Below are positions 3,423 through 3,598 of a DNA stretch of 64,000 nt, in pieces. The translations under genes were made by a program, and so were the position numbers. Every line of letters starts with the position of its first letter. Position 1 is the stretch's first letter. The DNA is from Escherichia coli (GTDB lineage Bacteria > Pseudomonadota > Gammaproteobacteria > Enterobacterales > Enterobacteriaceae), in assembly GCF_003334355.1 (NCBI RefSeq), contig NZ_QOWP01000024.1, one strand, 5' to 3'. The notes beneath the pieces were generated by a model. That model saw nothing but the letters and a program-made list of their open reading frames with translations. It had not been told where the DNA came from and did no database searches.

Positions 3423-3503
3423 AGGTGTTTTCTCCTTTCTGATTTACAGTCGAAGCCCACGTAACGGGCGCAATATAAATACTCCTGTCGAGTGAAATAT
3501 TTT

Positions 3504-3517
3504 TTGTTTTTGATCAA
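3504..3517 (-). promoter_or_regulatory. Candidate FNR box upstream of ydfZ
   Basis: TTGTT-tttg-ATCAA fits the FNR consensus TTGAT-N4-ATCAA at 9/10 positions, about 88 bp upstream of the ydfZ start. ydfZ is recalled as FNR-activated. Confidence 0.35.
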
Positions 3518-3598
3518 GCTCACATCTTTTTTGATGCATGCATGAGCCATAAGGCGGGGGAAAAGACTCTCACCCCGAATGGGATGAGAGGAAATGAA

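Follow-up and report, generated by a model that had tools for sequence, protein, structure and literature searches.

The dyad TTGTTtttgATCAA at positions 3504-3517 of a 64,000-nucleotide stretch of Escherichia coli DNA (the whole of which is referred to here as the window) is taken to be the FNR operator of ydfZp, a Class II, FNR-activated promoter, and a probability of about 95% is assigned to this reading. [quoted passage not shown] The present analysis supplies the coordinates, the -41.5 geometry, the lack of a -35 element and the phylogenetic footprint; FNR occupancy, the start site, anaerobic and fnr-dependent induction and the anaerobic recruitment of sigma-70 are documented in the literature on an identical sequence. 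The FNR site of ydfZ is thus already known, at textbook level, and is biologically nothing new. What the result signifies is that an initial annotation, made by reading the letters alone, had picked out an FNR operator that is real and validated by experiment, and had put it in the correct class. The proposed FNR site itself was borne out; a second register overlapping it, centred at -47.5, had been overlooked and is considered below.

Genomic context of the ydfZ promoter

The window is a part of the E. coli chromosome covering the ydfI / ydfZ / rspR / ydfG / dcp region. The order of the genes is ydfJ' (plus strand, to the left of ydfI), ydfI (1723-3183, plus strand, convergent with ydfZ), ydfZ (3219-3422, minus strand), rspR, also known as ydfH (3599-4285, minus strand, the upstream gene of ydfZ), ydfG (minus strand, beyond rspR) and dcp (plus strand, beyond ydfG), with ydfJ', ydfG and dcp placed by gene order. 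The 67-aa ydfZ gene that the initial annotation had put downstream of the dyad is the minus-strand open reading frame 3219-3422, which is annotated as ydfZ in RefSeq and belongs to Pfam PF14001 ('putative selenium delivery protein'). Given the coordinates of ydfZ and rspR, the segment 3423-3598 is exactly the whole rspR-ydfZ intergenic region. A 551-bp query round the dyad has matches in 5417 of the 5426 complete E. coli genomes, where ydfI, ydfZ and rspR are the annotated features.

The intergenic region contains the intrinsic terminator of rspR (3558-3590, minus strand), which consists of a 10-pair stem, CTCTCATCCC/GGGGTGAGAG, followed by the T-run TCTTTTCCCC. On the 3' side of ydfZ lies a terminator hairpin (3183-3211, minus strand, with the hairpin at 3211-3191), AATGCCGCCGATGGCGGCATT followed by GCTTTTTTTA, which is common to the convergent ydfI. 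With the rspR terminator on its 5' side and this hairpin on its 3' side, ydfZ is an insulated, monocistronic unit.

Comparison with E. coli K-12 MG1655 shows identity from the rspR terminator to the ATG of ydfZ, the sole difference being a T/C SNP in the terminator loop. Since the promoter is base-for-base identical to that of K-12, the experimental data obtained in K-12 transfer directly. Of the 5426 complete E. coli genomes, 5322 carry the core promoter of 71 bp, with at least 99% identity in 5296 records.

Other features of the region were noted in passing. The perfect 10-bp palindrome ATGCATGCAT at 3534-3543 (about -65 to -74), between the rspR terminator and an upstream A-tract, is only partly retained within Escherichia and some Citrobacter. 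Further along the window, a 6.3-kb accessory segment (about 12390-18675), lacking in strain C, is situated between eamA and marB; its annotation in the matching genomes includes a GntR regulator, a PTS IIC component, a 6-phospho-beta-glucosidase and a carbohydrate porin, and a 7-kb query spanning it is covered to at least 80% in 2496 of the 5426 complete E. coli genomes. Two other segments, at about 34617-44636 and 48513-48803, are also missing from strain C.

Sequence of the dyad and architecture of the promoter

The segment 3504-3517 reads TTGTTTTTGATCAA on the plus strand and TTGATcaaaAACAA on the minus strand, that is, in the direction of ydfZ. The latter reading, TTGAT-CAAA-AACAA, agrees with the FNR consensus TTGAT-N4-ATCAA at nine of ten positions (5/5 in the left half and 4/5 in the right half), the same match as had been given in the initial annotation. 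The FNR pattern with at most one mismatch occurs five times in the 64-kb window against 3.87 expected, a number reached in 34 of 100 shuffles, and in view of this lack of enrichment it is position, conservation and experiment that have to carry the argument. The dyad is lifted above chance by its place relative to the mapped start site and by its conservation.

The centre of the dyad, at 3510.5, lies 88.5 bp 5' of the ydfZ ATG. In the supplementary TSS table of Kim et al. 2012 (PMC3415461), ydfZ has a start site at NC_000913.2 1627192 (plus strand, 41 reads, 5' UTR of 47 nt), for which the upstream sequence is given as GCTTGATCAAAAACAAAAAATATTTCACTCGACAGGAGTATTTATATTGCG, ending in ...GGAGTATTTATATTGCG. 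Because the ATG at 1627239 corresponds to window position 3422, this start maps through the identical K-12 sequence to the G at 3469 on the minus strand, and the dyad centre then falls precisely at -41.5, where Class II sites canonically lie. A distance that had been called compatible with a class II site, with mapping of the start suggested as the check, is therefore exact with respect to a published start. The top ydfZ FNR site in Table 1 of Myers et al. 2013 is likewise placed at -41.5. The supplement of Mendoza-Vargas 2009 holds a RACE primer for ydfZ and gives no mapped start. Among the points that weigh against the FNR operator at -41.5 are that the start of Kim et al. is based on 41 reads, and that the register at -47.5, which Grainger et al. 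2007 chose as the site, is nearly equal on the FNR matrix of Myers et al. (13.18 against 13.58).

The probable -10 hexamer is TATTTA at 3476-3481 (-12 to -7, minus strand), assigned from its distance to the start site and from a conserved gap to the dyad; the assignment is insecure in that the hexamer lacks the usually conserved T at -7. A 17-bp spacer from it leads to AAAAAT at 3499-3504 (minus strand), which matches TTGACA at one of six positions, and the promoter has no usable -35 element. A generic consensus scan of 3150-3700 found no complete sigma-70 promoter, which is consistent with an activator-dependent Class II promoter and was not counted as evidence against one. The hexamer TATATT at 3477-3472 was considered as an alternative -10 element and rejected: it is closer to the consensus (5/6), yet its use would shift the start to about 3465 and the FNR site to -45.5, it conflicts with the mapped start, and it is not conserved outside Escherichia and Citrobacter.

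Directly upstream of the activator sites is an A6 tract (3527-3532, -63 to -58, minus strand), with A at -62 to -58 in 88-92% of 77 distinct orthologous promoters. The tract could serve as a docking site for alpha-CTD or as the A-rich flank of a CRP site.

The 47-nt leader comprises the start base at 3469 and the remainder of the 5' UTR at 3423-3468 (minus strand), with the Shine-Dalgarno sequence AGGAG at 3436-3432. The transcript opens with the hairpin GCCCGUUACGUGGGC at +1 to +15 (window 3455-3469). The idea that the leader holds a riboswitch or other structured RNA was rejected, as no Rfam family matched the ydfZ leader at E <= 1 and the predicted fold was no better than that of shuffled sequences (z = -0.79). 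The leaders of Citrobacter and Salmonella are about 15 nt longer and carry an extra CGTGGG...CCCACG hairpin which E. coli does not have. An NsrR-like half-site near AAGATG / ATGCAT, judged by eye only, was also discarded, being a weak match that is not conserved.

Published evidence for activation by FNR

The check on anaerobic induction and its dependence on fnr, as proposed in the initial annotation, is answered by published work on the identical promoter. Myers et al. 2013 report in Table 1 an FNR ChIP-seq peak with two motifs at ydfZ, together with '+' for sigma-70 and for expression, both being higher anaerobically. Occupancy of ydfZ by FNR was recorded there by ChIP-chip as well as by ChIP-seq. 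The gene is placed in Category 1, and Table S8 classes it as 'Activated' and enters '+' in each of its three columns of evidence. Table S6 of the same paper gives the exact 14-mer, TTGATCAAAAACAA, with a PatSer score of 13.58, and a second, overlapping ydfZ site, GTGAGCTTGATCAA, with a score of 13.18. The wild-type aerobic versus anaerobic expression ratio of ydfZ is 0.011 (Table S12), and sigma-70 occupancy is significantly higher anaerobically (Table S2, values 63.19 and 3596.97). The main text of Myers et al. prints the ydfZ site as TTGATaaaaAACAA, with the spacer 'aaaa'; Table S6 and the genome read TTGATCAAAAACAA, with 'caaa'.

Grainger et al. 2007 (PMC1802558) had earlier included ydfZ among 63 FNR ChIP-chip targets, and a ydfZ promoter fragment served as the EMSA positive control for FNR binding in PMC5481319. 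The fusion PydfZ-lacZ is a standard 'Class II' reporter of FNR activity in published work. The original ydfZ expression papers are reportedly those of Kang 2005, Constantinidou 2006 and Mettert 2008, as known through Myers 2013 and PMC6343905.

Conservation of the promoter in the enterobacteria

An alignment of 17 YdfZ proteins was used to fetch 80 ydfZ loci from contigs representing one genome per species. One locus was left out, giving 79 genomes from about 20 enterobacterial genera. The excluded locus, NZ_VLXZ01000251.1, is a 265-bp low-coverage contig from an assembly of Alkalicoccobacillus porphyridii (Bacillales), agrees at every base with the promoter and the 5' end of ydfZ in E. coli, and is probably an E. 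coli contamination of that assembly.

An FNR dyad matching the consensus at nine or more of ten positions and centred 70-120 bp before the ATG was found in 70 of the 79 genomes, and one matching at eight or more positions in 78; the background per 50 bp, taken from the other 242 kb of these loci, is 0.0023 and 0.030, respectively. Orthologous promoters share ancestry, so that these counts do not represent independent events.

The position-wise information content was examined in 77 distinct promoters anchored on the dyad. Anchoring on the best FNR match inflates the conservation within the dyad; the results for the flanks and the spacing are unaffected. Positions -30 to -22 carry about 0.1 bit each, which implies that neutral positions are saturated, as against about 1.0-1.4 bits per position (0.83 at -8) in the -10 region GTATTTATA (-13 to -5). 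In at least 51 of the 77 promoters the dyad is followed, at a distance of exactly 22 nt, by TATTTA or TATTAA, and the 22-nt gap between the dyad and TATTWA is kept despite a changed dyad sequence in Klebsiella (TTGATTATCCTCAA) and Kluyvera (TTGACAAAGCTCAA). Turnover of the dyad sequence under a fixed match to the FNR consensus and a fixed distance to the -10 element is the signature of a selected Class II site.

Proposed mechanism of activation

The data are best explained by the standard Class II mechanism, in which FNR carrying its [4Fe-4S] cluster dimerises in the absence of oxygen and binds TTGATcaaaAACAA 41.5 bp 5' of the start, where the bound protein stands in for the missing -35 element and recruits RNA polymerase. 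By analogy with the general Class II mechanism, the downstream subunit of FNR is expected to contact region 4 of sigma-70, and the upstream subunit the alpha-CTD, seated on the A-tract near -60. Transcription then proceeds from window position 3469, and the resulting mRNA is monocistronic for ydfZ and has a leader of 47 nt. Oxygen destroys the cluster, upon which FNR monomers leave the site and the promoter becomes nearly silent.

The overlapping register and a possible input from CRP

Through the palindrome TTGATCAA a second register arises, whose centre at 3516.5 (-47.5) lies 6 bp 5' of that of the FNR site. This register occupies 3509-3524 on the minus strand as TGTGAgcttgaTCAAA, within which GTGAGcttgATCAA is contained. 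The register can be read in two ways, as TGTGA-gcttga-TCAAA, a 9/10 match to the CRP pattern TGTGA-N6-TCACA, and as GTGAG-cttg-ATCAA, an 8/10 match to the FNR consensus.

Read as a CRP site, the register raises the possibility of a composite operator, in which cAMP-CRP also binds TGTGA-N6-TCAAA in vivo and modulates ydfZ, so that oxygen and carbon signals are integrated on a 21-bp stretch. Such an arrangement would add to the explanation by FNR and would not replace it. It is considered a tentative proposal, somewhat short of an even chance, to which several observations lend weight. Besides the 9/10 match, ydfZ is included in a CRP genomic SELEX target list (PMC3105977), and a 2026 Footprint-seq preprint (PMC12871828, Table 1) describes ttTTTGAtcaagcTCACAtct as a 'novel CRP site' with an estimated Kd of 5.2 nM in vitro and its centre at NC_000913.3 1629120, which maps to window position 3516.5, exactly the centre of the register.

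Comparative data point in the same direction. Nine CRP half-site positions fall outside the FNR core and are conserved at the 6-bp offset in at least 11 genera; among them is the FNR spacer CAAA, which should not be under constraint from FNR. A CRP dyad of at least 8/10 with that offset recurs in 11 or more genera (Escherichia, Citrobacter, Salmonella, Enterobacter, Lelliottia, Kosakonia, Phytobacter, Leclercia, Pluralibacter, Huaxiibacter and Pseudenterobacter), against a background of 0.024 per 80 bp. Two Franconibacter loci and one Siccibacter locus lack the overlapping CRP register and have instead a perfect or 9/10 CRP site (TGTGATATTCATCACA and variants) 29-30 bp 5' of the FNR dyad, at about -70, in a tandem CRP and FNR layout; this relocation suggests that CRP input to ydfZ is maintained while the architecture changes, and together with the conserved overlap it points to selection for such input. 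Taken together, the -47.5 register looks like a real CRP site that binds the protein in vitro.

A regulatory role for CRP is nevertheless held back by several considerations. In the literature searched, neither in vivo occupancy by CRP nor crp-dependent expression of ydfZ was found. The CRP centre at -47.5 is none of the canonical activating positions known for this protein (-41.5, -61.5, -71.5 and so on). The shared ancestry of the orthologous promoters applies to the CRP counts as well, and the conserved upstream block could instead serve for alpha-CTD docking or DNA bending. On the first two grounds, ydfZp was not filed as a CRP-regulated promoter.

If CRP does act at ydfZp, competition with FNR is the most probable mode, because the dimers cannot share overlapping sites. 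The specific form of this proposal, that CRP at -47.5 and FNR at -41.5 compete for one stretch of DNA and that carbon status thereby gates an otherwise purely oxygen-controlled promoter, is viewed as speculative and slightly less probable than a CRP contribution in general. Were it true, a second input would be hidden in a promoter that is in wide use as a 'clean' reporter of FNR. Since the CRP site is conserved and has nanomolar affinity for CRP in vitro, users of PydfZ-lacZ as a proxy for FNR or for the status of Fe-S clusters should control for the carbon source and cAMP.

Two further sites in the window were recorded in this connection. The Footprint-seq preprint (PMC12871828) also names a 'novel CRP site' of yneE, with a Kd of 0.7 nM, which is present here as TGTGATCGTAATCACG at 29809-29824. 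The sequence TGTGATTTAAATCAAA at 18742-18757, on the right-hand border of the accessory island, agrees with the CRP pattern at nine of ten positions and with the FNR pattern equally well.

The same register can also be read as the functional FNR dyad, GTGAGcttgATCAA centred at 3516.5, which would leave the dyad at -41.5 incidental. This is the placement of Grainger et al. 2007, whose predicted 24-mer is centred at 1627144.5, equivalent to window position 3516.5; with Grainger et al. centred on -47.5 and Myers et al. 2013 on -41.5, the two papers name different 14-mers as the ydfZ FNR site. The closeness of the two matrix scores would agree with it, as would the conservation of the GTGA block of the register in many genera. 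No published point mutation or base-resolution footprint separating the two registers was found in the literature. Against it, GTGAGcttgATCAA matches the FNR consensus at only eight of ten positions and begins with G where FNR prefers T, and this base is conserved as G, the CRP-type base. The centre at -47.5 is displaced by half a helical turn from the Class II position, and among the 23 promoters in Myers et al. that FNR activates and whose start is known, 19 have their site at -41.5 +/- 4. Finally, the more distant genera Klebsiella, Kluyvera, Mangrovibacter, Pseudocitrobacter, Franconibacter and Buttiauxella lack the -47.5 register and keep the dyad at the fixed 22-nt gap from the -10 element. 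The -47.5 register is therefore very unlikely to be the activating FNR site.

That the dyad is a chance match devoid of a regulatory role would fit the near-expected number of matches in the window (five with at most one mismatch against 3.87), but it is countered by the published binding and expression data, the exact -41.5 geometry and the conservation across genera amid unconserved flanks, and its probability is negligible.

Comparison with known FNR-dependent promoters

The dyad at 3504-3517, read as the Class II FNR operator of ydfZ, has its closest counterpart in ydfZp of E. coli K-12 (b1541; described by Myers 2013 on the basis of Kang 2005 and Constantinidou 2006, and earlier, by ChIP-chip, by Grainger 2007), which is the same locus with the same 14-mer at the same -41.5; nothing of substance differs, the strain of the window carrying one SNP in the rspR terminator loop. 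Like dmsA, narG, nirB and nrfA, all of which have their site at -41.5 (Myers 2013, Table 1), ydfZ carries an FNR dyad over a missing -35 element and shares with them anaerobic recruitment of sigma-70 and strong dependence on FNR. Unlike these promoters, ydfZ does without a co-activator (NarL, NarP or others) in glucose minimal medium, and this accounts for its use as a clean reporter of FNR. The ydfZ promoter differs from them also in carrying an overlapping CRP-type register, a feature that dmsA, narG, nirB and nrfA are not described as having.

Co-regulation by CRP and FNR is known from the ansB promoter, in which FNR is bound at -41.5 and CRP near -91.5. The ydfZ promoter resembles ansB in having the sites of both CRP-family regulators at one promoter, and it is the ydfZ promoters of Franconibacter and Siccibacter that come close to its tandem layout. 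In E. coli, unlike ansB, the two ydfZ sites overlap with their centres 6 bp apart, which makes simultaneous binding of CRP and FNR implausible.
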